Shown here piece after piece: positions 12,402 through 56,238 of a stretch of DNA of 56,238 bases. How positions within the stretch are numbered: position 1 is the stretch's first letter; each line of letters starts with the position of its first letter. A program made the position numbers and the translations under genes. Under the pieces are notes generated by a model. The model was not told the origin of the DNA and searched no databases. It saw only the letters and a list, made by a program, of their open reading frames with translations. The stretch lies in NCBI GenBank assembly GCA_023380415.1, contig JAMCRC010000025.1, positions 1-56,238 on the forward strand, in the 5' to 3' direction. Source of the stretch: Patescibacteria group bacterium. Lineage in GTDB: Bacteria; Patescibacteriota; Minisyncoccia; UBA6257; GWB1-50-10.

Positions 12402-12714
12402 GGGGATGTCGGGCTTTGACAGGGCATCTTCCGCGGAAATCGCGAGCCGAGCCGACCGACTCGTAAATCCGGTCGAAATCTTAACTGCCAATAAATCAGC
12501 AGTTCCGGCTTTAGCTTACGCTTAAGCAGGCATCGGTCCCTGACGCCTACTAGGGGGTCGCCGGTGTAATAACGCGGGCTCTGGCCTCTCGAAGATGCTT
12601 CGCCCGAGAGGGGCCGAGACTTAGCGAGGCACTTCGTACTTGTTTTCAAGCACTACGCTCGTAGAAGGTTTGCACGGAACGTCCTGGATGTGGGTCCAAC
12701 TCCCACCATCTCCA
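12402..12714 (+). ncRNA. ssrA: tmRNA (transfer-messenger RNA)
   Basis: 5' end GGGGAUGUCGGGCUUUGACAGGG; 3' end GUGGGUCCAACUCCCACCAUCUCCA. The acceptor stem GGGGAUG/CAUCUCC contains G3:U, with a T-arm adjacent. The tag ORF (12487-12525) GCC AAU AAA UCA GCA GUU CCG GCU UUA GCU UAC GCU UAA encodes ANKSAVPALAYA*. CCA is not encoded. Confidence 0.9.
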
Positions 12715-12723
12715 CAACAACTT

Positions 12724-15863: not shown

Positions 15864-15899
15864 TCTACACCCGCCCCGGCGGACGGGCAAAAACGCCGG

Positions 15900-17633: not shown

Positions 17634-17640
17634 GGGCAGA

Positions 17641-18321
17641 TCAAACCTTATCCACCGGCCTTTCGGGGTTGACCGCTTGAGGCGGGTTCCACTTCAACAT
17701 GTCTTTGCGGATGGAAAGGAAAAGCATGGAGATGGCGAGCGATATGACGCTGGCGGCGACGAAGAGGATCTGGAAACCGTAGCGGGAGGCCAAATAACCG
17801 CCCAAAGCGGCGGCGCCGGCCGTCGCAAGGCCGACCGAGATGACGCTTTCCAAACTCCATTCGAAGCTGATGCGCCATTTGTCCACGTGGCGGGTGAATA
17901 TGCCGTACCAGCTCGGGACCGCCCAAGCCATCAGGAATCCGTAGAGGGCCTGGACGAGATAAAGCTCCATCGGGGTGCGAACGAGGATATAAAGGAGAGG
18001 GACGAACGACTCGAGGAAATAGCCCCAGAACATGGCCCAAAAGGCCAAGACCTCACCGTTGCGACGGTCCAAAACCTTTGCGATCGGGAGCTGGAATATC
18101 GACTTCACTATCCAATAGACCGACGTGGCGAACCCGGCCACTTCGACCGATCCGCCGCCGATCTGATTCGTCACGAAGACGGCGAAGATCGGGGCGAACG
18201 ACCCGAAGGCGTAGTTGGTAAAAAAATCGACGACGACCATCGTCTTGACCACCCGGTTGAAATCCTTGAAGGACCTGAGGGCCTTCGTGAAAGAAAACTT
18301 AGCTGAACTTGAATTCTCCAT
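17641..18321 (-). CDS. half-size (6-TM) MFS-like transporter
   Basis: 226 aa with about 6 hydrophobic helices. Resembles the C-terminal half of an MFS permease. Its start overlaps the Clp-like gene's end by 23 nt. Confidence 0.65.
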   Translation of the reverse strand: MENSSSAKFSFTKALRSFKDFNRVVKTMVVVDFFTNYAFGSFAPIFAVFVTNQIGGGSVEVAGFATSVYWIVKSIFQLPIAKVLDRRNGEVLAFWAMFWGYFLESFVPLLYILVRTPMELYLVQALYGFLMAWAVPSWYGIFTRHVDKWRISFEWSLESVISVGLATAGAAALGGYLASRYGFQILFVAASVISLAISMLFLSIRKDMLKWNPPQAVNPERPVDKV

Positions 18322-36527: not shown

Positions 36528-37067
36528 ATGTCGGGACATAGTCATTGGAAGCAGATAAAGATCCAAAAGGCGAGCACCGATAAAAAGAAGAGCGCCTCCT
36601 TCGCCAAAATATTGAACGCGATCGCCATCGCGGCGCGGTCAGAACCGAATCCAGACTTCAATCCACGCCTCAGAACCTGTATTCAAAAGGCCCGCGAGGC
36701 CCAGGTCCCCCAGGAGAACATCGACCGAGCCGTTCAAAAGGCCAAAGACAAGAATTCCGACCTCAATGAGATCGTTCTCGAGTGCTACGGTCCCGGCGGT
36801 ATAGGCATTTTGATATTGGCGGTGAGCGACAACACCAATCGGACGGTGAATGATGTTAAGTTGGTCCTCAAAGAACATGGGGCGCGGCTCGCCGAACCAG
36901 GAAGCGTTCGTTGGGGATTCGAGCCGGACCAAAAGGAATTCGGTGGATTCAAGGCCAAATTTCCCCAAGACCCCGGAGCGGACCGCGACAGATTGAACGC
37001 CATCATATCGGCCATCGAAGACCTGGACGACGTCCAGTCCGTCGCTACCACCGCCTACCAACAATGA
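36528..37067 (+). CDS. YebC/PmpR-family protein (shortened, 179 aa)
   Basis: MSGHSHWKQIKIQK..., NPRLRTCIQKAREAQVP, YGPGGIGILILAVSDNTNRT, EDLDDVQSV. Confidence 0.85.
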   Translation: MSGHSHWKQIKIQKASTDKKKSASFAKILNAIAIAARSEPNPDFNPRLRTCIQKAREAQVPQENIDRAVQKAKDKNSDLNEIVLECYGPGGIGILILAVSDNTNRTVNDVKLVLKEHGARLAEPGSVRWGFEPDQKEFGGFKAKFPQDPGADRDRLNAIISAIEDLDDVQSVATTAYQQ

Positions 37068-37543
37068 AGACCACCGTCTTGGGCATCGACCCCGGTACGA
37101 CCCGGATCGGGTACGGACTGATTGGCGTCTCCGGTATGGACCTGAGGCACATCGAAAGCGGTCTTTTGCCCGTACCGGCATCAGAGCGTCGTCCAGAGGC
37201 GCGCCTTTTGAATATCGAGCACGAGTTCGAAGAGTTGGTCAGACGGACCAATCCCGGGATCGTCGGCATAGAGAAACTTTTTTTTACCAAGAATAAAAAG
37301 ACGGCGATGAGGGTCGCTGAAGCGAGAGGGGTCATTCTCAAGGCCGCGGCCGGGCTGGGTCTCAGGATAGAGGAAGTGTCACCGTCAGCCGTTAAGATCG
37401 CCGTGACCGGCGATGGTCGGGCCGGCAAGGAAGCGGTCGCCAAGATGACGAACTTAATGCTCAAACTGCCGCCCAGGAAGGTGGTCGACGACGTAACGGA
37501 CGCCCTCGCGATCGCCATCGCGGTGAGCAATACCCGCTTCTAG
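37064..37543 (+). CDS. ruvC: crossover junction endodeoxyribonuclease RuvC
   Basis: Track ORF trimmed to ATG 37064 (ATGA overlap with the yebC stop). MKTTVLGIDPGTTRIGYGLI..., VGIEKLFF, DDVTDALAIAI. Confidence 0.9.
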   Translation: MKTTVLGIDPGTTRIGYGLIGVSGMDLRHIESGLLPVPASERRPEARLLNIEHEFEELVRRTNPGIVGIEKLFFTKNKKTAMRVAEARGVILKAAAGLGLRIEEVSPSAVKIAVTGDGRAGKEAVAKMTNLMLKLPPRKVVDDVTDALAIAIAVSNTRF

Positions 37544-41456: not shown

Positions 41457-41626
41457 AGTAGTGGTAGTAGTTCCTGGGATTATGTGGATAAGCTAGTAAC
41501 GTTAAGTATTTATTGGTCGTTTCGGTACTAGTGACTGTTGATTATTGTTGATTATATCCGATCCGGTGTGGGTAACTTTTTGTATCGCCCGATTTATTCC
41601 ACAACCCAACCACGTTTTTATTCACA
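41457..41626. other. candidate oriC segment (DnaA-box cluster in dnaA-dnaN spacer)
   Basis: AT-rich spacer. Perfect box TGTGGATAA at 41483-41491. 8/9 boxes TGTGGGTAA at 41567-41575 and TTATTCACA at 41618-41626. TTATTCCACA at 41594-41603. Confidence 0.55.
41536..41555. repeat. perfect tandem 10-mer TGTTGATTAT x2
   Basis: Read directly from the sequence inside the dnaA-dnaN spacer. AT-rich, possibly DUE-like or a protein-binding iteron. Confidence 0.6.
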
Positions 41627-42998: not shown

Positions 42999-43176
42999 TT
43001 GATTCCAATTTTATTCATCGAAAACGTCGACCGCCGCTCCAAAACCGAATCACCATTCAAGTTCCTGTTTATGATAGAAGGATTTTGAAACGATGCAATG
43101 TTGCGGAAACGGGTCCTATGTGCTTTAATTGTGCATTATCTGTTGATAGTCGTTACAGGTTATAATTCAAAGGTAA

Positions 43177-43311
43177 ATGAGCGTCACTTATCAGCCGAAG
43201 AAGAGGAAGCGGGTCCGGGCGCACGGGTTTCTGAAGCGTCGGCGGTCGGCGAGCGGCAGGAATGTCGTTAAGAGCCGCCGGCAGAAGGGCCGCAAGCGCT
43301 TGACGGTCTAA
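43177..43311 (+). CDS. rpmH: 50S ribosomal protein L34
   Basis: Not in the track (44 aa): [44 protein letters not shown]. Confidence 0.9.
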
Positions 43312-44230: not shown

Positions 44231-44659
44231 ATGGACCTCAAAGAACAAGTTCAATCTTTGATCGCTAGAATGGGCTTCCCGGACGCCCAGGTTTCGGTCG
44301 ATGACGAGCACCATAAGATATCGGTGGTTATAGACGACGAGGCCGTCCGGGCCCAACTCCCATCGCTCCTGCCGGCCCTGGAGCACCTCGTGAACCTGAT
44401 CCTCCGGAAGGTAAAGTCGCCATCGTATGTCGTAGATCTGAACTACTACCGTCGGGAGCGCGAGCGGCTCATTATCGAGCTCGCCAAAGCAGCGGCTAAA
44501 AAAGCGGCGATGACCAAGGGGGAGGTCGCGCTGCCGCCGATGAACGCCTATGAACGGCGCCTGGTCCATGTGGAGATATCGACCAACCCCGATCTAATGA
44601 CGGAGAGCATCGGTGCCGGGAAGGACCGTCATATCGTCATTCAACCGACCAATCTCTAG
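44231..44659 (+). CDS. jag: Jag/KhpB-like KH + R3H RNA-binding protein
   Basis: 142 aa. R3H region MNAYERRLVHVEIS. Synteny after yidC. Confidence 0.85.
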   Translation: MDLKEQVQSLIARMGFPDAQVSVDDEHHKISVVIDDEAVRAQLPSLLPALEHLVNLILRKVKSPSYVVDLNYYRRERERLIIELAKAAAKKAAMTKGEVALPPMNAYERRLVHVEISTNPDLMTESIGAGKDRHIVIQPTNL

Positions 44660-45867
44660 TCGGAGTACTCCCCGTTCACGGCATTGCCCGGTCCGCCGGT
44701 GTTGGCGGGGACCTGTAGGGCGTACAAATATCCGTCCAGCCTATTGATGAAGTATAGATTACCCCCGGCCACAGCCGGGTCTTTTCCATCTATGGCGCCG
44801 ACGGCATTAGCCGGGACCGGCAGCGGAACGGTGCTGCCGTTCTGCGTATCTATGGCATAGAGGGCGTCGGTGGTGTAGAGCTTGTGTTCGATGTAGTCGT
44901 CCGGGAGCGAGGCGCTCTTAAAATCCTGATCGGTCGGAACGAAGCAGTATATCGTCGGCCCGGAATCGTCGGAACACTTGGATGGCAGCGTGGTGAACGG
45001 TATCGGCGCCAGGTTTTGCATAGTTTGGCTAGAAAGTATCTGGAAGCCGTTCGACGCCGAATAAGCGACCAATGTGGATCCGTTATTGACCAATTTGACC
45101 ATCAGGCCGTTCGCCGGGCCGATTATCGGGTTGATGGCGAGCGTCTTTAAATTCAAGCTCCAGACCCGGGAAGCGTAATTCGCCGCCCCCTTTTCTTCGA
45201 TAAGGAGGGTGTTGGGGGGGACAATGTCGAATTTCGTATCCAGGAAGCGGAAATCGTTGATGATTATCTTTGGTTGAGGCGGCGTCTTGGTCAGATCGAG
45301 CGACACTAGATTGATGTTCGAGCCGTTCTGGACGGTCGCGATCAGCGTCTGTGAATTACTTCCCCAGGTGGCCTGCAGGATATTCGCCGGAAGCGGGCGC
45401 CAGACCTGATCGATGGCGTCGTATATCCCCCAACTCGGGTTTTGCGGATCGCCGAAGGCGGCGAGTACGGAATTGTAATCCGGGCTGGCTTTGATGAAAT
45501 TGACGGCCGCCACTCCCTGCTGGGTGATCTGCGGGTTCTTTTGGCCCGGTTCGGCCTGCCAAACAAGGCCGTTCTGGTCCAGATAAAACACCTCCTGGGT
45601 GGCCGGATCAGTCCAGAAGAACGAAGCGGGGCGGTCGGAGACCTTGGTGAGCGTTCCGACGGAGATGCCGGACGTCGCGACCGCGGCGGTGCTTGTGGCG
45701 CCCGTGCTGGTGCTTGTGAGGCCGGCCAGGGGGAAGTATGGGGCGCTCGATGTGGATGCGCTTGGGGCAGAGGGAGATCCAGAGAACCAATTCCAGGCGA
45801 AATACACCAACAATCCCGCGACGACAATGATCGCGGCGATGACGATTATTTTGATATACGGCTTCAT
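44656..45867 (-). CDS. membrane-anchored, beta-rich extracytoplasmic protein (last gene of T4SS-like operon)
   Basis: 403 aa. N-terminal TM helix, a Ser/Thr-rich linker, then a beta-strand-rich body (possibly propeller-like). Starts 1 nt after the upstream stop. Confidence 0.65.
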   Translation of the reverse strand: MKPYIKIIVIAAIIVVAGLLVYFAWNWFSGSPSAPSASTSSAPYFPLAGLTSTSTGATSTAAVATSGISVGTLTKVSDRPASFFWTDPATQEVFYLDQNGLVWQAEPGQKNPQITQQGVAAVNFIKASPDYNSVLAAFGDPQNPSWGIYDAIDQVWRPLPANILQATWGSNSQTLIATVQNGSNINLVSLDLTKTPPQPKIIINDFRFLDTKFDIVPPNTLLIEEKGAANYASRVWSLNLKTLAINPIIGPANGLMVKLVNNGSTLVAYSASNGFQILSSQTMQNLAPIPFTTLPSKCSDDSGPTIYCFVPTDQDFKSASLPDDYIEHKLYTTDALYAIDTQNGSTVPLPVPANAVGAIDGKDPAVAGGNLYFINRLDGYLYALQVPANTGGPGNAVNGEYSD

Positions 45868-45868
45868 T

Positions 45869-47320
45869 TTAATTCGCGTTGCATCCAGCTACGGTAATAT
45901 GGACGTGGTTGGCGCTTGGATCGGTGCAGCTCACTATCCCCGTACTGCTTTCGCAGCGCGCCCCGCTCGCCTCGGGCTGTTTCACGTATTGGCCGCAATA
46001 CTGGGCTATCCCAACGAGGAAGTTATTGGCCGCCGTCCCGTCAAAAGCGCCATTCGGGCCGCTGTTAAAATCGAAGTCCATCGCTTCCGAGCCGAGGTTG
46101 CCGGCGCTCGTCGCGGTATGGCCGGTCTGATTCCCGCCGTAATGGCAGGAATTAACGGCGTGGACGCAGAACTTCTGCCCGTTGAGCGTCGCCGGATTGC
46201 CACGGGTGTAATTGCAGATCGTATTGCCTGTTTGTTGGTAGCTGTACGGCCCGGAGGTGAAGTTCGCGAGATTATGGCTCATGATGCAGGAGAACAGGTC
46301 CGATGTATCTTGGGCGATCCCGGCGACATAACCCTGGTAGTAGTACTTGGCGCCGCATGAAGATTGGTCGTGGCAGCCGATCGCGGCTTGGAGGGCGTTC
46401 GGGTCGTATTGACCGAAACCGCTTTGGGAGCTTTGAGCGCTCGGGTTGAGGGCGATCTGTTGATCGTGCGGGTAGCAAAGCTGGAGGGTCGGATTCAGGT
46501 TTATCATGGTCGGTGTCGACGAGCTGTCGTTCGGCTGGTAGGCGTAGATCAGGCATTTGGCGCCACTGACCGGACTCCCCGAGCCGGTGAAGTAAGGGTA
46601 CATCCAAACGCGGTCCCCGGCGTCTATGGTCTCTCCCTCGTCGTAGTATTGGTGGTCGTTCGTGATGTCTATACTGCTGCTCCCCACGTAACCCACGCGG
46701 AAAGCGCAATTCAGCGTCGGATTCCCGCCCTGATCGACTGATCCTGCGCCGTCCCAAGCGGCCGCTTGAGACATGCTTGCGTATGTCGCTGTGGCGGAGA
46801 TGGTCGAAGTATTGTTCGGATTCCAGGTGCTCTGGTTCAGTGGGATACATTCGGTGTCGGCGACGGAAAGGGTCTGGGTGCTGGCTGGCTTGGGCGGCGC
46901 AGGCAGGTCCGTCCCGGGCAGATTGAGATTCGATGTTATCTTCGGATTGATGGTGGTGAGTATGAGGTAGGAGGCGAGAAGGAGGCCGACGCCGTAGAGG
47001 GCCGAAAGGATGATATCCCGCGCGTCCTCTTGGGCGCTCGTATTTCCCGCCGAGATCGTATACTTGATGCCTCCGTAGACGATCATGAGGAGGGCGAGGA
47101 GGCCCGCGATGGCGAGAGCGATCTGATAGAAGGAATTGATGAAATTCCCTATCGACGTCGACGAAGCGAGCTGATTGCAGGTTCCGAAACCGACCGGGCA
47201 CGGGAAATTAAGGTTCACGATGTCACTTTGGGCGAACGCGCTCGGCGCGGCCGTAAGGCCGACCAGGACCACGAGACCGAGCATTACAAGAGATGTTTTT
47301 AAAATAGGTCTCATGTTCAC
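45869..47320 (-). CDS. VirB2/TrbC-type T4SS pilin module fused to a Cys-rich extracellular domain
   Basis: 483 aa. Signal peptide (...APSAFA|Q). Two-TM hairpin FYQIALAIAGLLALLMIVYGGIKYTISAGNTSAQEDARDIILSALYGVGLLLASYLIL. Then ~350 aa with 16 Cys, ending NHVHITVAGCNAN. The start could be ATG 47314. Confidence 0.65.
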   Translation of the reverse strand: MNMRPILKTSLVMLGLVVLVGLTAAPSAFAQSDIVNLNFPCPVGFGTCNQLASSTSIGNFINSFYQIALAIAGLLALLMIVYGGIKYTISAGNTSAQEDARDIILSALYGVGLLLASYLILTTINPKITSNLNLPGTDLPAPPKPASTQTLSVADTECIPLNQSTWNPNNTSTISATATYASMSQAAAWDGAGSVDQGGNPTLNCAFRVGYVGSSSIDITNDHQYYDEGETIDAGDRVWMYPYFTGSGSPVSGAKCLIYAYQPNDSSSTPTMINLNPTLQLCYPHDQQIALNPSAQSSQSGFGQYDPNALQAAIGCHDQSSCGAKYYYQGYVAGIAQDTSDLFSCIMSHNLANFTSGPYSYQQTGNTICNYTRGNPATLNGQKFCVHAVNSCHYGGNQTGHTATSAGNLGSEAMDFDFNSGPNGAFDGTAANNFLVGIAQYCGQYVKQPEASGARCESSTGIVSCTDPSANHVHITVAGCNAN

Positions 47321-48015
47321 TTACCGATGATATTGAAGACGTTCACCGTTCGGCTGAATTCGAGGGGGTTTTGGATGTTTTGGGTAGTGAGCGTGACGGG
47401 CAGCATCTGCTGGCTCGATGATTGCGGGGTTCCGATATCCAACGTGAGCTGGTTACCGCTGCTCGTGACGGTCTGGCCGTTCAGCTGCCAAGTGAACTTA
47501 AGGTCCGAAAGCGAGCTCACGTTGAAGAAATAGGGCCAAGCCGTGAAGACGATCTTGCCTCCGGAGGGAATATTTTTCTGGACGGCCGGATAGTCGATGA
47601 CCGCGAAGGGCGGAGATGCCGTGATCGAGATCGAGCTGGTATTCGAGCCACTTCCGGTCTGGACTTGGACCCGGATGTTCACGAGGCCGGTCGGGTCGGG
47701 ACTCGCGGTGAAGATTATAGATTTGAGGCCGACGCCGCTTTGGATCAGATTATCATTAACAAACCAGCTCACTTGGGCCTGCCCCAAATTAACGAGGCGG
47801 TTCCCACTCAGCTCTTCTACCGAGGCCTTGACCGGGCTTCCTGGTGTGACCGAGGCCTTGCCGGGGAAATCAGCCGGGAAATAGTTCTGAGCTTGCCAGG
47901 TAATGATGACCGATGTGGCGGCCTGTCCGGCCGGGGTTTGAGCCCAGGCGAAATGGACCGCCGAGACGCCGCCGATCAGAATAGCCGCCCAAATGATTGA
48001 TTTATTCGTTCGCAT
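47317..48015 (-). CDS. secreted protein with two Ig-like/beta-sandwich repeats
   Basis: 232 aa. Signal peptide (...HFAWA|Q) and a repeated pattern (VSWFVNDNLIQSG / FTWQLNGQTVTSSG). Confidence 0.6.
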   Translation of the reverse strand: MRTNKSIIWAAILIGGVSAVHFAWAQTPAGQAATSVIITWQAQNYFPADFPGKASVTPGSPVKASVEELSGNRLVNLGQAQVSWFVNDNLIQSGVGLKSIIFTASPDPTGLVNIRVQVQTGSGSNTSSISITASPPFAVIDYPAVQKNIPSGGKIVFTAWPYFFNVSSLSDLKFTWQLNGQTVTSSGNQLTLDIGTPQSSSQQMLPVTLTTQNIQNPLEFSRTVNVFNIIGK

Positions 48016-48019
48016 CGGT

Positions 48020-48361
48020 TTAAGAGGCCAATTCCACCCCCTCCGCCTCCAGTGGGGCGTTCTTGGGATGGTTGTGCCAGTAGGCCTTGACGAGAAAGGC
48101 GCTGATCGGTCCGGGAACGAGCGGTATCAGGTCGATGGCGAACTGGATCAGGAATGATTTTAGTTTACCCGCCCCCGGATCACCCCTCCTTTTGAAGAAC
48201 CACTCCGTTCCGGTCGTCGAAGCGAAATTGAAAAGCCAGGCGGCCACGATCCCGACGAGCGTGCCGTCCAGGATATCGTTCATGATATAGAGCCCGAAAA
48301 GGAATGTGGCCAGAACAACCACCTCCGCGCCGTTTATCTTTTTGTATTCGCCCATGCCCAC
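48020..48361 (-). CDS. small integral membrane protein (113 aa)
   Basis: About 3 TM helices, tightly packed in the operon (4 nt and 9 nt spacers). Confidence 0.6.
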   Translation of the reverse strand: MGMGEYKKINGAEVVVLATFLFGLYIMNDILDGTLVGIVAAWLFNFASTTGTEWFFKRRGDPGAGKLKSFLIQFAIDLIPLVPGPISAFLVKAYWHNHPKNAPLEAEGVELAS

Positions 48362-48370
48362 CTTATTAGT

Positions 48371-50125
48371 TTATTCCTTTAGCCCTTTTATCTCCAGCAT
48401 TTGCTCGGGATTCGTGGTGATTATCTGGTCCTCGGTATACGAGGCGATGATCTTTATCGCTACGTGCTTCAATCCGGCGAAGAAAAGACCTTCGCCGACC
48501 GAGGCCTCGAGAAGGAACGCCTTTTCCCCTTCAGTGAGGCCGAAGGCCTTGGCGACCACATCGATGCTCGTCGGCGACTGTTTCAGGAGGAGCTGCAGGG
48601 ACGAGTTGGTGATTATCGGCTGGCCGTAATCTGACTTCAAAAAGTCCTCCACATCCTGGTTGATGGTCATAACGCCCAGATAGTACTTGCGGGCGCGCTT
48701 CACTAGGCCGAATAGGAATTGGGCGCTGTCCTGGTATTTCATCATGATCCAGGCCTCGTCCACGATCATTATCCTCTGCTTGAGCTCGGCCCGGATCAGG
48801 TTCCAGACGAAGTTCAAGATTATATACATCGCGATGGGGCGCAGCTCCTCCTCGAGATCGCGGATCGAGAAGACGATCAGGCGGTTCTTGATATCGACGT
48901 TCGTCGGGGCGTTGGTGAAGCCGGAATAGGACCCGTTCACGTATTTATCGAGCCGGGCCGCCATGCCCTTGCCGCCCTCGGTGCTCTGGAGGATCGTCTG
49001 AAGGTCGCCCAGAAGCGGCGGATTCAATTCCTTCAGGGACCCGAAGTTGTCGGCGGTGATGTCGCGCGAAGCGTATGTCTCGGTAATGGCTCGGTCGAGC
49101 ATCGCTTCTTCTTCCGGAGTGATCTTGCCGAGCATCAGTTTCACGAGGCCCGTCAGGTTCAGAATGTGCGATTTGAAAACGTCGGCCGGTTCCTCTCCCT
49201 CCGGAATGATCGGGATGTCGAACGGGTTGATGTGACTCTCGGAGGTGAGCGATATTTTGAAGTAGCTTCCGCCGATCGCGTTCGCCAGGTTCTGGTATTC
49301 GTTCTCCGGGTCGATGACGAGGACATCGGTACCCATCATCATCGAGCGCAGGATCTGGAGTTTGGCGGCGTACGATTTGCCGGAGCCGGATTTGGCGAAG
49401 ACGACCATGTTCGCGTTCTCCAGGGAGAATCGGTCGAAGATGATCAAGCTCTGATTGTTCAGGTTGATGCCGTAAAGGATGCCGTTCTCCGAAGAGAGCT
49501 CGGGCGACACGAAGGGGAAGAGCGATGAGGCCGGGCCGGTATTGAGGGGGGTCCGGAGGGCGAGCCTGTCCTCGCCGAGCGGCATGACCGACGTCAGGCC
49601 TTCCGTTTGGCGGAAAAGAGCGGGCTTTGCGTAGACCAGCTTGCTCTCGAGCGTGTTCACCACGGTCTCTTCGAGGGTTTTGAGATCATCCTCGGCCGGA
49701 GCGTAGAGCGTTATGTAGACCCCGACCTCGAAGAGGCGCTCACGGGCTTGCTGGAGGGCGTCTCGGAGCGTCTCGACGTCATCGTGGGCCGTCTCTAATA
49801 TCGGGTCGCGGACTATCCCCTTCGACTCTTTTTCGTTTATCTCGGCCTCGATCTGGGCCACCTTTTTCCGGAGGTTCCGGAGCGCAAGGGCCGTGTCCAT
49901 CGGATGCATGAAGATAGAGATGTCGATCATGGCCGGCAGGTTGATGATGGAGGAGAACCAGCCGCTCGTGACGAAGCGCGGATAGGTGAATATGAATATG
50001 GTCTTCGTGTAGTAGTCGCCGATCTTCAGATAATTGCTGCCGACCTCGAGTCCGGCCGGCGCAATTATGTTCGGCAGGTCTTCGTCTCCCGGCTGGTAGG
50101 CCTTGGGTAGTTTGATATTATCCAT
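48371..50125 (-). CDS. virB4: VirB4-family T4SS ATPase, C-terminal (motor) part
   Basis: Start set at ATG 50125 (MDNIKLPKAY). Walker A is VVFAKSGSGKSYAAK and Walker B is RIMIVDEAWIMM. Layout is AAA_10/DUF87-like. Confidence 0.88.
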   Translation of the reverse strand: MDNIKLPKAYQPGDEDLPNIIAPAGLEVGSNYLKIGDYYTKTIFIFTYPRFVTSGWFSSIINLPAMIDISIFMHPMDTALALRNLRKKVAQIEAEINEKESKGIVRDPILETAHDDVETLRDALQQARERLFEVGVYITLYAPAEDDLKTLEETVVNTLESKLVYAKPALFRQTEGLTSVMPLGEDRLALRTPLNTGPASSLFPFVSPELSSENGILYGINLNNQSLIIFDRFSLENANMVVFAKSGSGKSYAAKLQILRSMMMGTDVLVIDPENEYQNLANAIGGSYFKISLTSESHINPFDIPIIPEGEEPADVFKSHILNLTGLVKLMLGKITPEEEAMLDRAITETYASRDITADNFGSLKELNPPLLGDLQTILQSTEGGKGMAARLDKYVNGSYSGFTNAPTNVDIKNRLIVFSIRDLEEELRPIAMYIILNFVWNLIRAELKQRIMIVDEAWIMMKYQDSAQFLFGLVKRARKYYLGVMTINQDVEDFLKSDYGQPIITNSSLQLLLKQSPTSIDVVAKAFGLTEGEKAFLLEASVGEGLFFAGLKHVAIKIIASYTEDQIITTNPEQMLEIKGLKE

Positions 50126-50126
50126 T

Positions 50127-50780
50127 TTATTGGGCGGCGATGTCTTTTTTCTCGACGAGTTGCGGATTATAGAGATTGTAGAAGAGTTCGACGAGGTCAT
50201 CGTCCTCTAAAGGGACGGCTCGGAGGCCGATCTGGTTGAGTCCCGTGATGACCTGTTCGCTGCGGCGCCGGAGCTGTTCCAGGTTTTCCTGCAAGGTCGC
50301 TTCGGCTGCGGCTTTGGCCGAAGATTTATTGCCTCCGAAGAAAGACATCAACCCCTTGGATCCGCCGCCGGGGATGACGACCGGATCGTAGGGCACGACG
50401 GCGAAAAACGTCTTGGTGATGATGGCGTTCTCCTGAACGAAGTTACGGATGAAGTTGATGTATTCTTCGATCTGGATCTTCAGAAGCTCATTCCCCTCTT
50501 CTTCCTTGCGGGACTCCATTAGTTTCAAGTACTTGTCGACGTTGACTTTCCGCGAATGGATGAAGAATTGGACGGAGAAATCGAGCGCGTTCAGGAAGTT
50601 CTGGAACGTTCCGAGGATCAGGTTCTGCTCGTCGTCGGACTTGAGGTCGAAATTAACGCCCGAAACGATAAGGATCTGGCGCAACCCCTTGTTTTTGAGA
50701 TAGACCACGCCGTCCTTTATCGACTTCACCTCGACGAAATCCTGGGACGGCTTGGTTGGTTGTTGTTTGGTCTCGGCCAT
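50127..50780 (-). CDS. VirB4 N-terminal-domain-like protein (separate ORF)
   Basis: 217 aa. FVEVKSIKDGVVYLKNKGLRQILIVSGVNFDLKSDDEQNLILGTFQNFLNALDFSVQFFIHSRKVN matches the N-domain pattern of Gram-positive VirB4 proteins. Its stop is 1 nt before the VirB4 ATG, in a different frame. Confidence 0.65.
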   Translation of the reverse strand: MAETKQQPTKPSQDFVEVKSIKDGVVYLKNKGLRQILIVSGVNFDLKSDDEQNLILGTFQNFLNALDFSVQFFIHSRKVNVDKYLKLMESRKEEEGNELLKIQIEEYINFIRNFVQENAIITKTFFAVVPYDPVVIPGGGSKGLMSFFGGNKSSAKAAAEATLQENLEQLRRRSEQVITGLNQIGLRAVPLEDDDLVELFYNLYNPQLVEKKDIAAQ

Positions 50781-50794
50781 TTTGATCTATTTTA

Positions 50795-51286
50795 TCAATA
50801 ATCCACCCTTTTTGCCTGCTTGCGCTCTCCGGTCAGATAGACGACGGTTTCGTAACCCCGGGTCTCCCCTCCGGCGGGCGTCTTGGGGGCGAATATCCTG
50901 CCGGTCGTTACGCTCAAGGCGACGTTCTTCAGCCGCTCTTCGAGGCCCATTTTGTGGCGCAGACTGTCGATCTTGTTGAACTTGTCCAGTTCTATCGTTG
51001 TCGTGGGGTTTACCCTCTGCCAGGTATAGGTCCGCGGCTGCCAGAAGTATGAAAAGGCCGAAGCGACTATGCTTGGAAAATCCTGGCCATTTATCTTCAC
51101 GAAGGCGAAAGCGACCCCGATGAGCCCCAGGATGACGGTGGCGACTACGGCGAAGAAAAGATTGAATATCTGGAACGAGATATAGCCCAAAAGTGCCGCC
51201 CCGCCGACGTAGAAGAATTGCTGGAGGGTGAGAAAACCGACGATCTTCGGCTTCTGATCTATAAATTGGGGGACTTGGAATTCCAT
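50795..51286 (-). CDS. PrgI-family (VirB3-like) membrane protein
   Basis: 163 aa. QVPQFIDQKPKIVGFLTLQQFFYVGGAALLGYI followed by 2 TM helices, the typical PrgI N-terminal pattern. Confidence 0.7.
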   Translation of the reverse strand: MEFQVPQFIDQKPKIVGFLTLQQFFYVGGAALLGYISFQIFNLFFAVVATVILGLIGVAFAFVKINGQDFPSIVASAFSYFWQPRTYTWQRVNPTTTIELDKFNKIDSLRHKMGLEERLKNVALSVTTGRIFAPKTPAGGETRGYETVVYLTGERKQAKRVDY

Positions 51287-52777
51287 TTATTCTCCTTTGA
51301 GGTCTATAACGTTGCCTTCCACCTTCGGTTCCGGCCTCTTGATGGCCCCTAATATGGCCGGCCCATCGGAGGTCGAATCTCCCTTAGGAGGTTCGACCTC
51401 CCCAATATTCTCCGTCGCGGGACTCTGACTCGCAGGCATCTTCATAACGTCATTCCGAGCCATTGGCGAGGAACCCACTTTTGGTGCGGCGAAGACCTTA
51501 TCCGGAACCTCTTCCGCTTTCGGCTTGATGACCACGGACGGCCTCTCGTTCACCTCCGGTCCGGCCGGTTTGGTTTCGGCGGCGAGCGGCGCCGGCGTCT
51601 CCGTAAGCGGCTTCGCCTCCCCCACATTAAGGAAAGAGGGCTCCTCGAAGGATGTAAGCGGAGTCCTGGTCTCGCTGTAATGGACGACGCGCTTTTCTTC
51701 CGGCTTGACGCCTGGTATCTCGAGCTTCGCGAAGGGCGACCTGGTCTCGTTGCCCTGAGGCCGTTTCTTGAGGAAAAAACCTCCGATCGGCGAAATAACG
51801 CTTCGGATGGCCGGTCTTCCGACGACCGTTCCGGGCGCCTCTTCCTCGTGGAGGATGAAAGGGGCGTCCGGTTTCTTTTCTTTGAGTGTGACGCCCGCCG
51901 CCGGCGCGGCCTCGACCGGGATCGGTTCGGCTTGGGTTTCGCCTATATTCTCGATGGATATCACCTTCTCTTTCGGCCCCTCGCCTTCCCCGCCGGCCGG
52001 TTCGTAGATGGAGCTGATGGAGCCGGTGAGCCCGCCGATGACGCCCGCCCGGATGTCGGCCGCTATTTCGGCGCAAACCCGGCGGTCTATCCCGGTTTTC
52101 TCCTCGATGGTCTTTTCCAGATCGTCCATATGGACGAAGCCGAGTATCACTTGGCCGGCCATGGCCGCCACCTGGGCCGTCTTGCCGTCGCTCAAATGGT
52201 GATTGGTGCAGGTGCGGTAAATGGCCTGCGAATTCTCATAGGAATAAAGGGCCTGCTGCAGATCGTCTGTCACGAAACGGTAACGCTTCAAATATTTTCC
52301 GCCTTCCTCGTTGCCTGAGGCGTTCGGATCGAGACCGGTGATCTGCGCCGGCGCGGCGATGATGAAACTGTAGATCGACGGTCTCTCGGCCTTGAGCCAA
52401 TCGAGCTTACCGCTCCCAGTATCCCCCGGAACGGTTTGCCAGAAGAGCCGCTGGAATTCTTCCTGGGAACGGGGCGAAAGATCTTGGAGCACGACGCTCA
52501 ACGATTTGCCGTTCGCGCTCCCCAGTACGGCCCGGACGATCTCCGGCCTCACGCTCTTTTGCCAGTCGTCCTCATTAAGGTCCCCGAGGACCATCGGGAT
52601 TCCCGCGAACACATCCTCCCAGTCCACTCCCTGCCATTCCTCCAAGGAGAAATCGCCGAAAGCGTCCTCGAGCGCTTTCTCGGCCGGAGAGAATTGTTTC
52701 TTTTGCAGGGGGTCCCAGACCGCGTCGTCCCAGACCGGGAGTATGTTAAGTATTGTTTGGATGTCGTCTTCCATCAT
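51287..52777 (-). CDS. hypothetical protein: acidic Trp-rich N-domain plus Pro/Glu/Lys-rich disordered C-half
   Basis: 496 aa with no TM helix. Its stop abuts the PrgI-like start. No domain recognised. Confidence 0.6.
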   Translation of the reverse strand: MMEDDIQTILNILPVWDDAVWDPLQKKQFSPAEKALEDAFGDFSLEEWQGVDWEDVFAGIPMVLGDLNEDDWQKSVRPEIVRAVLGSANGKSLSVVLQDLSPRSQEEFQRLFWQTVPGDTGSGKLDWLKAERPSIYSFIIAAPAQITGLDPNASGNEEGGKYLKRYRFVTDDLQQALYSYENSQAIYRTCTNHHLSDGKTAQVAAMAGQVILGFVHMDDLEKTIEEKTGIDRRVCAEIAADIRAGVIGGLTGSISSIYEPAGGEGEGPKEKVISIENIGETQAEPIPVEAAPAAGVTLKEKKPDAPFILHEEEAPGTVVGRPAIRSVISPIGGFFLKKRPQGNETRSPFAKLEIPGVKPEEKRVVHYSETRTPLTSFEEPSFLNVGEAKPLTETPAPLAAETKPAGPEVNERPSVVIKPKAEEVPDKVFAAPKVGSSPMARNDVMKMPASQSPATENIGEVEPPKGDSTSDGPAILGAIKRPEPKVEGNVIDLKGE

Positions 52778-52786
52778 ATGGGTTGG

Positions 52787-54688
52787 TTATTTTTTGCCGC
52801 CGCCCTCCCCGCCGCCGGCCGGTTTGGCGCCGCTTTCGGGCTTCTTCTCGCCGCCCTCGCCGCCCTCTTCATAAACCTCCTTCATCAGCTTTTCGATCTT
52901 GTCGGTCTTGCCTTCGGTCTCGCCGAACGACCGGTTGGTCACGCCGTAGACCTGGCCGAGTCGGGTCTCGGCGATCGGCGACCCCTTGAACTTCTTGCCG
53001 CGCGTGGCTTTCATTGTCGCCTCGGCCTTCACGAACTCTTCGCGGGCCTTCTTCGGCAGTTGGGCCATGATCTCCGCCATATCCCGGACCGCATCGACGG
53101 CTCCCTTGGTGTCCTCGGTCACTTTCTCCCGGTTGGCGATGGCCTTTGCGAGCGCCTCTCTGGCGGGACCGCTCTTCTTGAGATCGCCCTCCTTTTCGGC
53201 CGCGGCAAGGGCGGCTTCGGCATCCTCGACCTGGGTCGCCGCCATCCGGCGTTTTTCGAGCGCGGTTTCCGCGGCGTCATCGCGCTTCCGTTTCTCTTTC
53301 ATGACCTTCATGGCGTAGGCGACTCGGCTGGGATTGTCCATGCTGTAATATTGTCGTCCGCCCTCCCTCAGGTCCTTGGGGATCTTTTTATTGGCATCCG
53401 ATACCAATTTCTCGTATTTGGCCCGTTGATTGGACAAAACGTTGCCGGTGTTCCTGACCGGCGCTCCCAACCAACGCAGGCCGCGAGGAAGGTCTTGACC
53501 GAATCTTTGAAGGCCGCCCACGACATTGCGTCCTCTTTCCGTCCGCAGAGGATAGGTGGCGGCTCTTTGAGCCAGACGGGTCGATGTGTTCTTCGCCCAT
53601 TTCTTGGTGCTGTCACCCACTCCTTTGGCGAGCTTAATGGCTCCCGCGGCGCCCGTGATGCCCATATTCTTCGCGACGAAGAGACCGCCGATCATGAGCC
53701 CGCAGAGGATGATCATCTTGATGCCCTGATTGAAAACATTGCTCAAAGTTCCCCCGAGCGAGGACGAGGTGTCGATGGGTAAGCTGTCGAAGAATTGGAC
53801 GCTCGTGAGAGCAAGGTAGATGAAGAAGGCGACCGCCGGAAGGAAGAAGACCCAATCGAGGAACCGGCTCCACCAGTCATGAAATATCTTATTGAGCGGC
53901 GGAAAGACCCAAAAGAGCCAGGTGATGGGGGCGGTGAGGAGCAGGATCGAGAGCATGACGTACCGGACGATGAGCATGAAGGCCAGGGCGAACATCACGA
54001 GGGCCGCGATGAGCGTAAAGACCATCGAGAAGACCAGTCCGGCAATGCCGGTCAATATCGCTTCGCCGAAACCGGAAGCGGCGCTCCCCTGGTCGGACGG
54101 GTTCGGCGGCGGCGGATTCTGGGGCGGCAGGTAAAGGGCCTGCGGTTCGAAGGCAACGGTAATGGCGGTGGCGAATTCGCTCGGGCTGCCGCCGAGCTTG
54201 CCGGCCAGAAAGACGTTCGTGAGCGAGTCCGAAAATACGATGAACGCTCCGGCGATGGTCAAACTGAAGTTCACGATGATGGCGGCCGCGATAAGCTTGG
54301 GGAGGAGGCTTTTCGCGTTGTACTCCTTGTAGCGGACGATGGTCGCCACAGCGATGATTATCATCACGAGAACGAACCCGAGGTTCGCGATGTCCCGGAG
54401 GATGGTCCAGCCGATCGTCACTATCTGATTCTGGTGGTTCAATATTTGTCCGTTCAGATTGAGGGCCACTTGGACCAGATAGCTCCCGAGGATGTAAAGG
54501 AGGCCGAACAGGAAGTTGAAGACGTAAGCGATGGCCCGGAAACCGGCGGTGACGAGGCCGGCGGGGCTCAGATCGACGCCGAAGAGCGAAACGGCGTGGG
54601 TCGTCTGCGGCAGAACCAAGAGAGGCGCGGCGATAAGAAACGCCACGGCCGCGACCTTCAAGAATTTCTTGTATTCTTTATTCTTCAT
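52787..54688 (-). CDS. VirB6/TrbL-like polytopic membrane protein with long cytoplasmic coiled-coil tail
   Basis: 633 aa. Signal/TM region plus about 7 further TM helices, including a PPQNPPPPNP loop. Then ~230 aa of charged helical tail ending GGEGGEKKPESGAKPAGGGEGGGKK. Confidence 0.65.
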   Translation of the reverse strand: MKNKEYKKFLKVAAVAFLIAAPLLVLPQTTHAVSLFGVDLSPAGLVTAGFRAIAYVFNFLFGLLYILGSYLVQVALNLNGQILNHQNQIVTIGWTILRDIANLGFVLVMIIIAVATIVRYKEYNAKSLLPKLIAAAIIVNFSLTIAGAFIVFSDSLTNVFLAGKLGGSPSEFATAITVAFEPQALYLPPQNPPPPNPSDQGSAASGFGEAILTGIAGLVFSMVFTLIAALVMFALAFMLIVRYVMLSILLLTAPITWLFWVFPPLNKIFHDWWSRFLDWVFFLPAVAFFIYLALTSVQFFDSLPIDTSSSLGGTLSNVFNQGIKMIILCGLMIGGLFVAKNMGITGAAGAIKLAKGVGDSTKKWAKNTSTRLAQRAATYPLRTERGRNVVGGLQRFGQDLPRGLRWLGAPVRNTGNVLSNQRAKYEKLVSDANKKIPKDLREGGRQYYSMDNPSRVAYAMKVMKEKRKRDDAAETALEKRRMAATQVEDAEAALAAAEKEGDLKKSGPAREALAKAIANREKVTEDTKGAVDAVRDMAEIMAQLPKKAREEFVKAEATMKATRGKKFKGSPIAETRLGQVYGVTNRSFGETEGKTDKIEKLMKEVYEEGGEGGEKKPESGAKPAGGGEGGGKK

Positions 54689-54703
54689 TCTCGGTTCTGA
54701 TTT

Positions 54704-56238
54704 CTAATGCGTCGCCTGACACTGGGTTAGCTTGGTTTGACCGGCAGTGAGCGCGGCCTGGATGTTCGAGAGCGTCGTTTGGGCGTTCAGATCTAGGCCG
54801 TTGGCGCTCGATACGGTCTCGGTGATGGCGCTCGAGTTGAACTGGTCCAGTGTGCTCGAAGAGATGGTTGGTGTGTTGAGGGTCGCGAGCCACACGTTGA
54901 TCAGATTGGTCGAAGAGGCCACCTGGACCGTCATTTGATATATGCTGACCGGCGTGGAACTCACGGCGATCGTCAGGTTGCCCTGGGCCCAGCCGAGATC
55001 GGAACTGCTCGAATTGGTCCCGAGGCAGCTAACGAGCGGTTGCAACACGGCAGTGATGAGGGACTGATTCGTCGTCGAGGCCGTCTGAAGGGTCGTCGAG
55101 GCATCGGCGAGAGACTTGGCGGCCTGGTTCAGCTGGACCAGGTATTGATTCTGTATGGCTTGGTTCTGAGCGCTGTTGTACGTATCGTTGGCATTCTGAA
55201 TGTCGGGATTGTTGACGATCTGGTCGACGGTCGGGGCGCCGGCTCCGGAGGAGGGTTTGTTGCTATTCGAGGCCGAGAGCAATATCCCCTGGAGACCGTT
55301 CACGCCGGCCTTGATGAGTCGGTTGAAAGCGGCATCGGCGATCATGGCGATGGCGTTCGAAATGCTCGAGTCGTTTATGGCGAGATCGAGATTGGCGTAC
55401 AAGGCCTTGTTGAGCCCCTGCTCGAAGACCCGGCCCGGGGTCGCCACCTGCAGGTCGCCGCACTCCCAGGAAAGCTGGGAAAGGACCATGAAATCGCGGG
55501 AGTGGGTATCGACGCCCGTTTGGCTCAGAGTATCGTAGGTCATCGGCGGCGGGCTCCCCGGATCCTCATACGGCTTGCCGTTCGTGTCCGAGATGGTCTT
55601 GGCCGCTGTCAGTTTTTGCTGGTTCTGATTGTTGATGACGAACCAGTTGTAGCAGACCTGGGGAGAGTTGAACCCGACGTTCACTTGGGTCTGGAGGGCG
55701 TTCTGGGTGGTCACCTGCTGGACATTGTTGTAGAGGGCGTCCTGGGCGATTATATCCACGCCATACTGGTTATTTTGAGGCGCCAGAAGCTCGCTGTAGC
55801 CGATGAACCCGCCGACCGCGAAGTTCTGGCGGAAAGCGTTGAAGTTCGAAACGATGGAATTAAGCGTGCAGGAACTTGGCTGGTTCAGGGGCTGGGGGGC
55901 GGAGAGCTCCAAGTTCACCTTGAACGTGTAAGGCGAGCAGAGAGTCGGTAAAAGGCTTTGAGCGGTGTCGCCGACGGCCTGCTGGAAAGCCGGCTGGAAT
56001 ACTTGCTGGCCGAAGTTCGTGATGAACTGCGGCTTGCCGCCGTTATTGATCCAGGCGATTATCTCGTCGGTCATCGTATTGATGATCCTTTGCTTGAGAG
56101 CCGAAAGGAACGTCGGCAGGATCTGGTCCTCGACGAACTGCCAAGCGGACTGGGCGATCTTGGCCGGATCGATGACGATGTCGCCTATACCCAAGATGGC
56201 CTGGGCGCGGGGGGCGAAAGCGGTCTGGATCGAAGTGC
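54704..56238 (-). CDS. large Q/N/S/T-rich hypothetical protein, N-terminus beyond window
   Basis: The frame stays open from 56194 (the track's TTG) to the window end (...TSIQTAFAPRAQAILGIGDIV...). At least 511 aa with paired Cys residues. First visible gene of the T4SS-like operon. Confidence 0.6.
   Translation of the reverse strand, partial: TSIQTAFAPRAQAILGIGDIVIDPAKIAQSAWQFVEDQILPTFLSALKQRIINTMTDEIIAWINNGGKPQFITNFGQQVFQPAFQQAVGDTAQSLLPTLCSPYTFKVNLELSAPQPLNQPSSCTLNSIVSNFNAFRQNFAVGGFIGYSELLAPQNNQYGVDIIAQDALYNNVQQVTTQNALQTQVNVGFNSPQVCYNWFVINNQNQQKLTAAKTISDTNGKPYEDPGSPPPMTYDTLSQTGVDTHSRDFMVLSQLSWECGDLQVATPGRVFEQGLNKALYANLDLAINDSSISNAIAMIADAAFNRLIKAGVNGLQGILLSASNSNKPSSGAGAPTVDQIVNNPDIQNANDTYNSAQNQAIQNQYLVQLNQAAKSLADASTTLQTASTTNQSLITAVLQPLVSCLGTNSSSSDLGWAQGNLTIAVSSTPVSIYQMTVQVASSTNLINVWLATLNTPTISSSTLDQFNSSAITETVSSANGLDLNAQTTLSNIQAALTAGQTKLTQCQATH

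Follow-up and report, generated by a model that had tools for sequence, protein, structure and literature searches.

An origin-proximal operon of Patescibacteria that very probably encodes a non-conjugative type IV secretion system

We analysed a 56,238-nucleotide (nt) stretch of DNA from an uncultured patescibacterium (contig JAMCRC010000025.1), which is called the window below. Its right-hand end, from position 44656 to 56238, is taken up by ten co-oriented and tightly packed open reading frames (ORFs) on the minus strand. Judging by the sequences of these genes, the operon very probably encodes a chromosomal, non-conjugative type IV secretion system (T4SS) of the kind carried by the ultrasmall Patescibacteria, which are also called the candidate phyla radiation (CPR). 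It runs toward the probable replication origin, and its only recognisable pilin carries a putative zinc hydrolase domain.

The genes were numbered from g1 (upstream, at the window edge) to g10, and all coordinates of operon genes and their domains given below lie on the minus strand. The spacers from g1 to g10 measure, in order, 15, 9, 0, 14, 1, 9–15, 4, ~0, and 1 nt. An earlier reading of the same DNA (the original prediction) had described ten minus-strand genes separated by short spacers, and all ten ORFs are present with the coordinates that it gave. Two identical contigs (L001 and L002), found through a look-up of g2, match the window sequence where compared and extend it by 7.4 kb upstream. 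In these contigs, g1 is complete at 525 amino acids (aa), its first 14 codons lying past the window end, and a further co-oriented gene of 265 aa, g0, sits just outside the window and overlaps the start of g1 by 4 nt. Because of this overlap, the operon comprises at least 11 genes; the earlier count of ten therefore stands for the window and rises by one with the upstream extension. The same locus is also present in OY970216.1 (804,691 bp, recorded as 'chromosome: 1') and in the 379-kb contig CAVRNT010000001.1. No strong terminator-like hairpin was found on the coding strand in the gaps between the operon genes. In the 41-nt gap between ksgA and g0, the sequence TTAAAA-17-TATACT with its TG extension resembles a sigma-70 site, by consensus match only.

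Core components and a split VirB4

Pfam matches were judged against gathering scores and NCBIfam matches against curated cut-offs. For the relatives, we scanned one genome per GTDB species, which yielded 80 loci, all from records of uncultured genomes and, where a taxon was named, all from Patescibacteria. All proteins of the locus and its flanks were compared with the 80 loci by tblastn, and the counts and median identities given below come from the 48 genomes with enough flanking sequence.

The membrane components of the system are encoded by g2 and g4. The g2 product (52787–54688) is a VirB6/TrbL-like polytopic membrane protein, matched by Pfam TrbL at 29.0 bits (cut-off 25.9) over residues 106–333 and carrying PF19590 (TrbL_3) on record. 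Hydropathy gives seven hydrophobic segments, read as a signal peptide and about six transmembrane (TM) helices, followed by a charged C-terminal tail of ~290 aa. It is present in 42 of the 48 related genomes with a median identity of 38%. The g4 product (50795–51286) is a PrgI (VirB3-like) membrane protein (Pfam PrgI, 33.9 bits, cut-off 27) and presumably the membrane dock of VirB4; it was found in 45 genomes, at a median identity of 46%.

VirB4 itself is divided between two genes. The first, g5 (50127–50780), encodes the VirB4 N-terminal domain as an ORF of its own and is TrsD-like (NCBIfam TrsD/TraD, 3.8e-9). It aligns with the N-terminal ~100–200 residues of NCBIfam VirB4 models (residues 3–105 of CD1110 and 98–222 of Mbov_0397), carries PF26593 (TraC-like) on record, and has a median identity of 60%. 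The second, g6 (48371–50125), encodes the 584-aa VirB4 ATPase, which scored 366 bits against NCBIfam conju_CD1110 (cut-off 325) and also matched Pfam P-loop_TraG (100 bits, 1.2e-28), AAA_10, and DUF87. Among solved structures, the ATPase domain of the Thermoanaerobacter VirB4 (4ag5) comes closest at 5.8e-46, and TrwK of R388 is next (1e-4). Homologues of g6 number in the thousands; the best 120 are 580–593 aa long and 75–95% identical, and the ~20 of these that are named are all patescibacterial (Patescibacteria, Jorgensenbacteria, Brennerbacteria, and Paceibacterota). Outside the CPR, and among plasmid VirB4s, the best relatives are CD1110-family proteins of Firmicutes and Actinobacteria with 30–35% identity.

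Two of the more distant relatives contain g5 and g6 as one in-frame ORF, namely a Colwellbacteria genome (L065; 3086–5458, 790 aa) and a JAKJEF01 genome (L075; 9434–11743, 769 aa). Because of these fusions, g5 and g6 together can be equated with VirB4, and because the two genes are kept apart in almost all genomes and fused only in these two, the split is a genuine and stable trait of the lineage. In some lineages, as in L065 and L075, the split was either reversed or never arose. We also considered whether the g5/g6 junction is a frameshift, a pseudogene, or a programmed frameshift. These options were rejected because nearly all relatives keep the split, the start codon of g6 directly follows the stop codon of g5, and two lineages have the in-frame fusion. 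The longest ORF for g6 would start at 50200 and overlap g5 by 74 nt. This overlap is an artefact of choosing the longest ORF, since the gene calls on the identical contigs and all 120 top homologues place the start at 50125, 1 nt past the g5 stop.

Overall, the HMM (hidden Markov model) searches support each of the VirB4, PrgI, VirB6, and pilin calls of the original prediction. Its description of these components as being of a Gram-positive/CPR flavour agrees with the Firmicutes and Actinobacteria origin of the nearest non-CPR VirB4s and with the Thermoanaerobacter protein as best structural match. Its statement that only four components are recognisable is slightly low, because the N-domain ORF belongs to the known TrsD family and the C terminus of the pilin protein resembles a zinc peptidase.

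The pilin fusion and the accessory proteins

In the product of g9 (45869–47320), a VirB2-type pilin is joined to an extracellular module rich in Cys. Hydropathy gives the protein a signal peptide, a pilin hairpin of two helices, and an extracellular part with 16 Cys residues. The pilin domain (residues 54–123; 46952–47161) was matched by Pfam T4SS_pilin at 39.9 bits (cut-off 26.6), as were 53 of 55 g9 orthologs, and a pilin-domain HMM found no second pilin among the window ORFs or in the upstream extension of L002. AlphaFold2 (AF2) models of g9 and g1, each built from only 16–17 sequences, had mean predicted local distance difference test (pLDDT) scores of 58.9 for g9 (68–86 in the C-terminal region) and 60 for g1. 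In the g9 model the pilin domain forms a helix hairpin (residues 57–89 and 94–124, with 10-residue block means mostly 74–83). A comparison of this domain by Foldseek with the Aeropyrum pernix conjugation pilin (8dfu) gave a probability of 0.66, a TM score of 0.64, and an E value of 4.8, which is not significant.

The C-terminal part of g9 (residues 348–483; 45872–46279) is a putative Hedgehog/DD-peptidase-like domain, M15-like within the LAS group, as judged by motif and profile. LAS zinc hydrolases comprise the lysostaphin-type M23 peptidases, the D-Ala-D-Ala peptidases (M15), and Hedgehog. The signature H-x(n)-D ... H-x-H is present in the g9 domain, with n of ~21 here and n = 6 in most orthologs, and the motif H-Y-x-G-x-A-x-D ... 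H-x-H closes 29 of the 55 orthologs. In a 28-sequence alignment of the module (A9), the putative zinc ligands H393, D415, H472, and H474 are the only invariant residues. When a profile of the module was compared with PDB sequences, the top 23 matches were all Hedgehog N-domains, aligned over the zinc-binding HYEGRAVD, with a best E value of 9.8e-4. Single orthologs matched HH_signal (3.7e-4) and Peptidase_M15_4 (8e-3), both under the Pfam cut-offs. One ortholog instead scored Peptidase_M23 at 2e-33, and L075 has an M23-type motif at the same position. Because the four ligands are invariant, the profile matches Hedgehog domains, and one ortholog has swapped in an M23 domain, we read the module, with moderate confidence, as a putative peptidoglycan zinc peptidase fused to the pilin.

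Across species, the C terminus of g9 is modular (orthologs L005–L078). Many orthologs stop after a Cys-rich beta domain with the pattern WxYPYY...CxxYAYK, and a few barely exceed the pilin; ortholog lengths range from 97 to 594 aa, and the median identity is 36%.

Several points weigh against this reading of g9. The basis of the peptidase call, a four-residue motif and a borderline E value of ~1e-3, is weak, and the C-terminal region of the window protein itself has no Pfam match. With a mean pLDDT of 59, the AF2 model is of poor quality, and searching PDB and BFVD with it by Foldseek returned no match at E ≤ 0.001 and no M15 or Hedgehog structure. The window protein also carries an insertion of ~14 residues between H393 and D415, and because the motif occurs in only 29 of the 55 orthologs, the domain is dispensable in many lineages. 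Finally, a pilin with a 350-aa C-terminal module may fail to polymerise, and the hairpin could be a mere membrane anchor.

With the LAS and Hedgehog/DD-peptidases (MEROPS M15, VanY/VanX-like; Sonic hedgehog N-domain), the g9 domain shares the H-x(n)-D...H-x-H signature and the alignment over HYEGRAVD; it differs in its similarity below Pfam thresholds and in the insertion inside the motif. Wall hydrolases with a membrane anchor belong to the usual equipment of Gram-positive T4SSs. The VirB1/PrgK/TraG-type wall hydrolases would be its functional analogues; unlike these, the g9 domain is fused to a pilin hairpin and not to a single TM anchor, and it has no lytic transglycosylase or CHAP domain. 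We found no report of a pilin–enzyme fusion for any T4SS. We regard as unlikely a bolder picture of an armed T4SS pilus, in which the sole pilin of the locus would be fused to a Hedgehog/DD-peptidase-type zinc hydrolase so that the fibre itself would cut peptidoglycan and drill a feeding conduit through the wall of the host.

The remaining proteins of the operon are lineage-specific, and six to seven accessory proteins are without functional assignment. All of these six or seven except g3 carry a signal peptide or a membrane anchor. Hydropathy places g3, g5, and g6 in the cytoplasm and indicates a signal peptide for both g1 and g8 and one N-terminal membrane anchor each for g0 and g10. The g1 product (54704–56238 in the window) is a secreted protein with one N-terminal hydrophobic segment, a conserved Cys-containing N-domain, and a C-terminal three-helix coiled coil; its median identity is 29%. 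In the AF2 model, residues 360–525 form three long helices whose 10-residue blocks mostly have pLDDT values of 76–96 (one at 70), and the N-domain is below 50. A profile of g1 orthologs matched only coiled-coil chains in PDB, and Foldseek returned only generic helical bundles, with no VirB5/TraC-like protein among the 50 matches listed and none at E ≤ 0.001 in PDB or BFVD. No Pfam match was found in 48 g1 orthologs.

The g3 product (51287–52777) is an acidic cytoplasmic protein (79 D+E versus 53 K+R residues) with no hydrophobic segment and a median identity of 26%. A 43-sequence alignment (A4) revealed a conserved central helical region of ~90 aa and the C-terminal motifs PFILHxE, KRVVHYSExRTPL, and EGNxIDL; the ortholog profile found no PDB relatives, and a Pfam scan of every ortholog gave nothing meaningful. 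The small membrane protein g7 (48020–48361; 111–113 aa), called from its ORF and hydrophobic segments, is poorly conserved (22 of 48 genomes, ~31% identity) and has no Pfam or NCBIfam match. The g8 gene (47317–48015) encodes a secreted protein of ~230 aa with an N-terminal hydrophobic segment and conserved Trp/Pro motifs, in which W40 and W176 are invariant across a 56-sequence alignment (A5). It is present in 44 genomes with a median identity of 33%, and its ortholog profile found no PDB relatives.

The last gene of the operon, g10 (44656–45867; 45 genomes, median identity 34%), encodes an extracellular protein anchored in the membrane by one N-terminal TM segment. It is probably a beta-propeller, as suggested by weak propeller matches in PDB and scattered weak matches to four beta-propeller Pfam families among 49 orthologs. 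Of the earlier description of g10 as membrane-anchored and beta-rich, the first part is borne out by the TM segment and the second receives weak support from the propeller matches. At the other end of the operon, g0 is a bitopic, membrane-anchored protein with a median identity of 26%, and its ortholog profile gave nothing when compared with PDB sequences. We considered g0 as a VirB8-like candidate on account of its bitopic topology and its size and set it aside provisionally, as its sequence looks mainly helical and not NTF2-like; g8 and g10 were further candidates for this role. Pfam, NCBIfam, and profile searches recognised no VirB8-like protein in the operon, and they gave no relative of known function or structure for g0, g3, g7, or g8.

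Genomic setting, origin, and orientation

To the left of the operon, Pfam identifies jag (R3H), yidC, and rnpA on the plus strand and dnaA and dnaN on the minus strand. The L34 gene, rpmH, lies at 43177–43311; a candidate at 43098–43271 proved wrong. On the upstream side, the identical contigs contain, on the same strand as g0, ksgA, a 113-aa ORF, and genes for a ComM/Mg-chelatase-type ATPase, a DksA/TraR zinc-finger protein, and a 399-aa protein. The spacer between dnaA and dnaN (41457–41626) is the probable oriC, ~3 kb from the 3' end of the operon. A pattern search located three DnaA-box matches at 41483–41626, one perfect and two with one mismatch; across the whole window, ten matches were found versus 5.4 expected. 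GC content falls to 0.49 near dnaN–dnaA, and the lowest point of the cumulative GC skew lies at ~42–44 kb. GC content in the operon is 0.55–0.59, the same as in its flanks and the rest of the window; a value of 55–59% across the whole window is high for a patescibacterium.

The skew on the plus strand is positive over most of the operon, and the minus-strand genes to the left of the origin lie in negative skew. Because the operon genes are on the minus strand, their coding strand has lagging-strand composition, as expected of long-standing head-on transcription. Consistent with the earlier proposal that the operon is transcribed head-on to the replication fork, the DnaA boxes lie in the dnaA–dnaN spacer, the skew minimum lies at ~42–44 kb, and the orientation is kept in 47 of the 48 genomes.

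Directly read, the sequence at the junction of g10 (minus strand) and jag (plus strand) contains two stop codons that overlap by 2 nt within a palindromic CTAG at 44656–44659. Contrary to the earlier proposal, the two genes do not share one stop codon, and the convergent arrangement leaves zero intergenic space for a terminator between two facing operons. In the relatives, the distance between g10 and jag is likewise only a few bases.

In 47 of the 48 genomes, which span several candidate taxonomic orders, the operon converges on jag, followed by yidC, (rnpA), dnaA, and dnaN. Most of the 48 keep the full gene order, including the upstream order comM–ksgA–g0...g10, with ksgA found upstream in 37 genomes and comM in 21 (often past the locus edge). 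The exception is L048, in which the whole origin segment (dnaN–dnaA / rpmH–rnpA–yidC–jag; 15737–20000) is inverted, so that the operon converges on dnaN and still points toward the origin. About ten genomes (L025, L029, L034, L035, L038, L040, L045, L047, L048, and L067) carry g9 and g10 in the reverse order. Among the flanking proteins, median identities to those of the window are 69% for DnaA, 56% for Jag, 52% for YidC, and 50% for DnaN. VirB4 (g6) exceeds DnaA, with a median of 76%. These medians, set beside the 26–36% of the extracellular parts, indicate a stronger constraint on the ATPase core than on DnaA and a fast divergence of the surface parts.

Pfam and NCBIfam searches found no relaxase, coupling protein, or integrase among the ten operon proteins, 30 other (larger) window ORFs, and the 7.4 kb upstream, where five genes were scanned and the remaining ones were assessed by housekeeping Pfam matches on record. 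The same searches found no VirB11 in the operon or the scanned window ORFs. The absence of relaxase, type IV coupling protein (T4CP), and integrase noted in the original prediction hence extends to the upstream region, which holds housekeeping genes. Likewise, searches for attachment-site (att)-like direct repeats and for inverted repeats like those of a transfer origin (oriT) around the operon gave short chance matches only, in line with the earlier statement that no oriT-like feature is visible. A recent horizontal origin was rejected on composition, as there is no GC break, and on synteny (47 of 48 genomes). Because its synteny is fixed, its VirB4 is more conserved than DnaA, its GC content resembles that of the flanks, and no repeats bound it, we conclude that this is a vertically inherited core operon and not an integrated conjugative element (ICE). 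It is no longer part of a mobile element and descends from the conjugation machinery of monoderm bacteria of the mating-pair formation (MPF) class FATA. A consideration on the other side is that a coupling protein may lie elsewhere in the genome.

The other scanned ORFs of the window are housekeeping genes or without assignment; they include those for isoleucyl- and arginyl-tRNA synthetases (IleRS and ArgRS), a beta-CASP RNase, PolX, RuvB, RuvC, Fpg, a 5'-3' exonuclease, a Mur ligase, penicillin-binding protein 1A (PBP1A), ClpB, and a PilB-type ATPase. IleRS (4556–8041, minus strand, 1161 aa) contains a complete His_Phos_1 domain (4.8e-35, residues 500–659) inside its class I catalytic domain, and we know of no precedent for a fusion of IleRS with a histidine phosphatase. 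A PilB/GspE-type ATPase (30965–32632, plus strand; T2SSE, 8e-112, with an MshEN N-domain) is encoded 12 kb from the T4SS operon, which indicates that the genome also encodes type IV pilus machinery. A YebC/TACO1 homologue of 179 aa (36528–37067, plus strand) matches positions 2–54 of a 160-position model of the second and third domains; ruvC (36911–37543) overlaps the 3' part of this ORF, and YebC looks C-terminally truncated. A transfer-messenger RNA (tmRNA) gene with the tag peptide ANKSAVPALAYA lies at 12402–12717 on the plus strand, and the gene for tRNA-Arg(CCG) (21171–21243) overlaps the 3' end of a Wzy_C (O-antigen-ligase-like) ORF (21164–22525).

Comparison with known systems and possible function

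A survey of 3,035 Patescibacteria genomes (Quinonero-Coronel et al. 2025, Microb Genom 11:001409, PMC12102498) described a monophyletic Patescibacteria VirB4 clade nested in MPF-FATA, with genes for TrsD, PrgI/VirB3, VirB6, and VirB2-like (PF18895) proteins abundant near virB4. In that survey, relaxases occurred in only 103 of the 3,035 genomes, T4CP genes were rarely nearby, and the T4SSs of Paceibacteria and Microgenomatia lay close to dnaA, dnaN, rnpA, ksgA, and rpmH. Our locus has the same short, clade-specific VirB4, the separate TrsD-like ORF beside it, PrgI/VirB3, VirB6, and a PF18895 pilin; it likewise has no relaxase in the cluster and no T4CP nearby, and its neighbours are dnaA, dnaN, rnpA, rpmH, and ksgA. 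The g6 protein is placed in the VirB4 clade by similarity alone (homologues at 75–95% identity, plasmid VirB4 at 35%, 366 bits against the CD1110 model). We found no essential difference from the systems of the survey. A search of its main text by terms found no mention of the putative pilin–peptidase fusion, of the beta-propeller-like and coiled-coil accessory proteins, or of a head-on orientation that is conserved and has abutting stop codons.

Experiments exist for a single relative, the T4SS of Ca. Southlakia epibionticum ML1 (SEML1_0006–0019), a member of the Saccharimonadia, which is a different class. In this saccharibacterium, the T4SS, including its pilins, is essential for epibiotic growth, as determined by transposon sequencing (Tn-seq), and has no coupling protein or relaxase (Wang et al. 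2023, Cell 186:4803, PMC10633639). The peptidase and lysozyme genes next to it are essential as well (PMC10633639, PMC12102498). Both systems are monoderm-type and chromosomal, both have pilins, and neither has a recognisable coupling protein or relaxase; the ML1 gene numbers 6–19 suggest closeness to the chromosome start. S. epibionticum has an array of about six separate VirB2-like pilins, whereas the locus analysed here has one fused pilin. Downstream of its virB4, S. epibionticum encodes peptidase and lysozyme in ORFs of their own, whereas the putative peptidase is fused to the pilin here. The statement in the original prediction that T4SS-like loci of Patescibacteria are essentially uncharacterised is overstated, as essentiality was published in 2023 (PMC10633639) and the repertoire, the absence of relaxases, and the proximity to dnaA in 2025 (PMC12102498). 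In a 2025 review (PMC12857230), the Patescibacteria T4SSs count as a new and established branch within the T4SS superfamily.

With the MPF-FATA systems (Trs of pGO1/pSK41 with TrsC, TrsD, and TrsE; Tra of pIP501; Prg/Pcf of pCF10; and the CD1110 family of CTn2), the locus shares a CD1110-family VirB4, PrgI, and a VirB6-like protein, and in pGO1 TrsD and VirB4 are split as they are here. In contrast to these systems, the locus has no relaxase, T4CP, oriT, PrgB-type adhesin, or recognisable VirB8-like protein (PrgL/TraM). A VirB2-like pilin, absent from Gram-positive systems, is present here, and the locus is fixed in the chromosome beside oriC and not carried on a plasmid or ICE. The components specific to ComB (ComB2–4, ComB6–10) and Ced (CedA, CedA1, CedA2, and CedB) were not found. 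The g6 protein has only a partial similarity to CedB and CedD, owed to an ATPase core that they have in common, and scores 43 and 20 bits versus cut-offs of 700 and 600. In conclusion, this kind of system is already known (described in 2023–2025), and its recognition here is correct and not new. The putative pilin–peptidase fusion, the conserved head-on junction with jag without room for a terminator, and the Paceibacteria-specific accessory inventory were not found in that literature and may be new.

We propose the following mechanism for the system. PrgI would dock the split VirB4 at the VirB6 channel. VirB4 would pull the pilin fusion g9 from the membrane and, where the cell touches its host, build from it and from g0, g1, g8, and g10, which are secreted or anchored, a surface structure in the form of a short fibre or stub. 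The Hedgehog/DD-peptidase-like zinc domain of g9 would cleave cross-links of the peptidoglycan, both in the wall of the cell itself and possibly in that of the host, to give passage. Through the assembled structure, proteins or other macromolecules would pass, but not DNA processed by a relaxase, in the service of a host-dependent lifestyle. We put this mechanism forward tentatively; identity and mechanism taken together, we consider the account somewhat probable. The specific roles of DNA or nucleotide import, effector export, and attachment only are each, at best, a tentative proposition. Two points weigh against our account: the organism is uncultured and the functions of the proteins are predicted from sequence, and VirD4 homologues are common in Patescibacteria, far from virB4 (PMC12102498).

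If the operon were an ordinary ICE, or the decaying remnant of one, then its relaxase, coupling protein, and integrase would have to lie outside our view. The recognisable parts are indeed homologous to MPF-FATA conjugation proteins, and our view is limited to the window and 7.4 kb upstream. However, the position beside jag and dnaA is kept in 47 of 48 species-level genomes, most with the full gene order, housekeeping genes lie on both sides, and VirB4 is more conserved than DnaA. There is also no compositional break and no flanking repeat, all genes are intact, the VirB4 split is conserved and not degraded, and only 103 of 3,035 Patescibacteria genomes contain relaxases (PMC12102498). We regard this explanation as effectively refuted. 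An inward machine, taking up DNA or nucleotides like Helicobacter ComB or archaeal Ced and supplying nucleic acid of the host to a cell unable to make nucleotides, would equally do without a relaxase or T4CP, as ComB and Ced do. The weak partial similarity of g6 to CedB (2.4e-11, far under the cut-off) and the conserved gene for a ComM-type ATPase a few genes upstream point in the same direction, and import is the hypothesis favoured in the 2025 survey (PMC12102498). On the other hand, the operon has no recognisable DNA-binding or nuclease component, and the synteny of comM may merely reflect conserved gene order near the origin. Moreover, S. epibionticum can grow epibiotically without ComEC-dependent DNA uptake but not without the T4SS, which separates the two and is silent on the cargo of the T4SS. 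We consider uptake an unlikely role.

Alternatively, the system could be reduced to the assembly of a surface organelle, with VirB4, VirB3, and VirB6 building an adhesive or wall-remodelling pilin fibre through which nothing is translocated. Classical pilus biogenesis, as in the textbook case of Agrobacterium VirB, is independent of the coupling protein, and neither a T4CP nor VirB11 was found among the operon proteins and scanned window ORFs. The accessory proteins are mostly extracellular, and their fast evolution (26–36% identity versus 76% for VirB4) is as expected of surfaces in contact with a host. A pure organelle, however, leaves the conserved acidic cytoplasmic protein g3 and the long cytoplasmic tail of VirB6 unexplained, and type IV pili, of which the PilB-type ATPase in the window (30965–32632) is a sign, are already implicated in the attachment of Saccharibacteria. 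We judge this reduction to be improbable as well and retain the conduit with a wall-cutting fibre or stub as our working mechanism.

The position of the operon bears on how its expression is explained. Proximity to the origin has been proposed to raise expression of Patescibacteria T4SSs through gene dosage (PMC12102498). This idea presupposes overlapping rounds of replication; orientation is not addressed in that paper, and the term is absent from its main text. A fixed head-on placement beside oriC does not fit easily with a simple account in which gene dosage gives high expression.

A large part of bacterial diversity belongs to the Patescibacteria, which appear to depend on other cells for their living, and their T4SS is, to our knowledge, the only T4SS known to be essential for the growth of its owner. 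The locus analysed here is not a new kind of system; it is a clean and complete example of the 11-gene architecture of Paceibacteria. The putative wall-cutting activity fused to its pilin would provide a concrete handle, in the form of four putative zinc ligands, on how such a system may pass through the cell wall.

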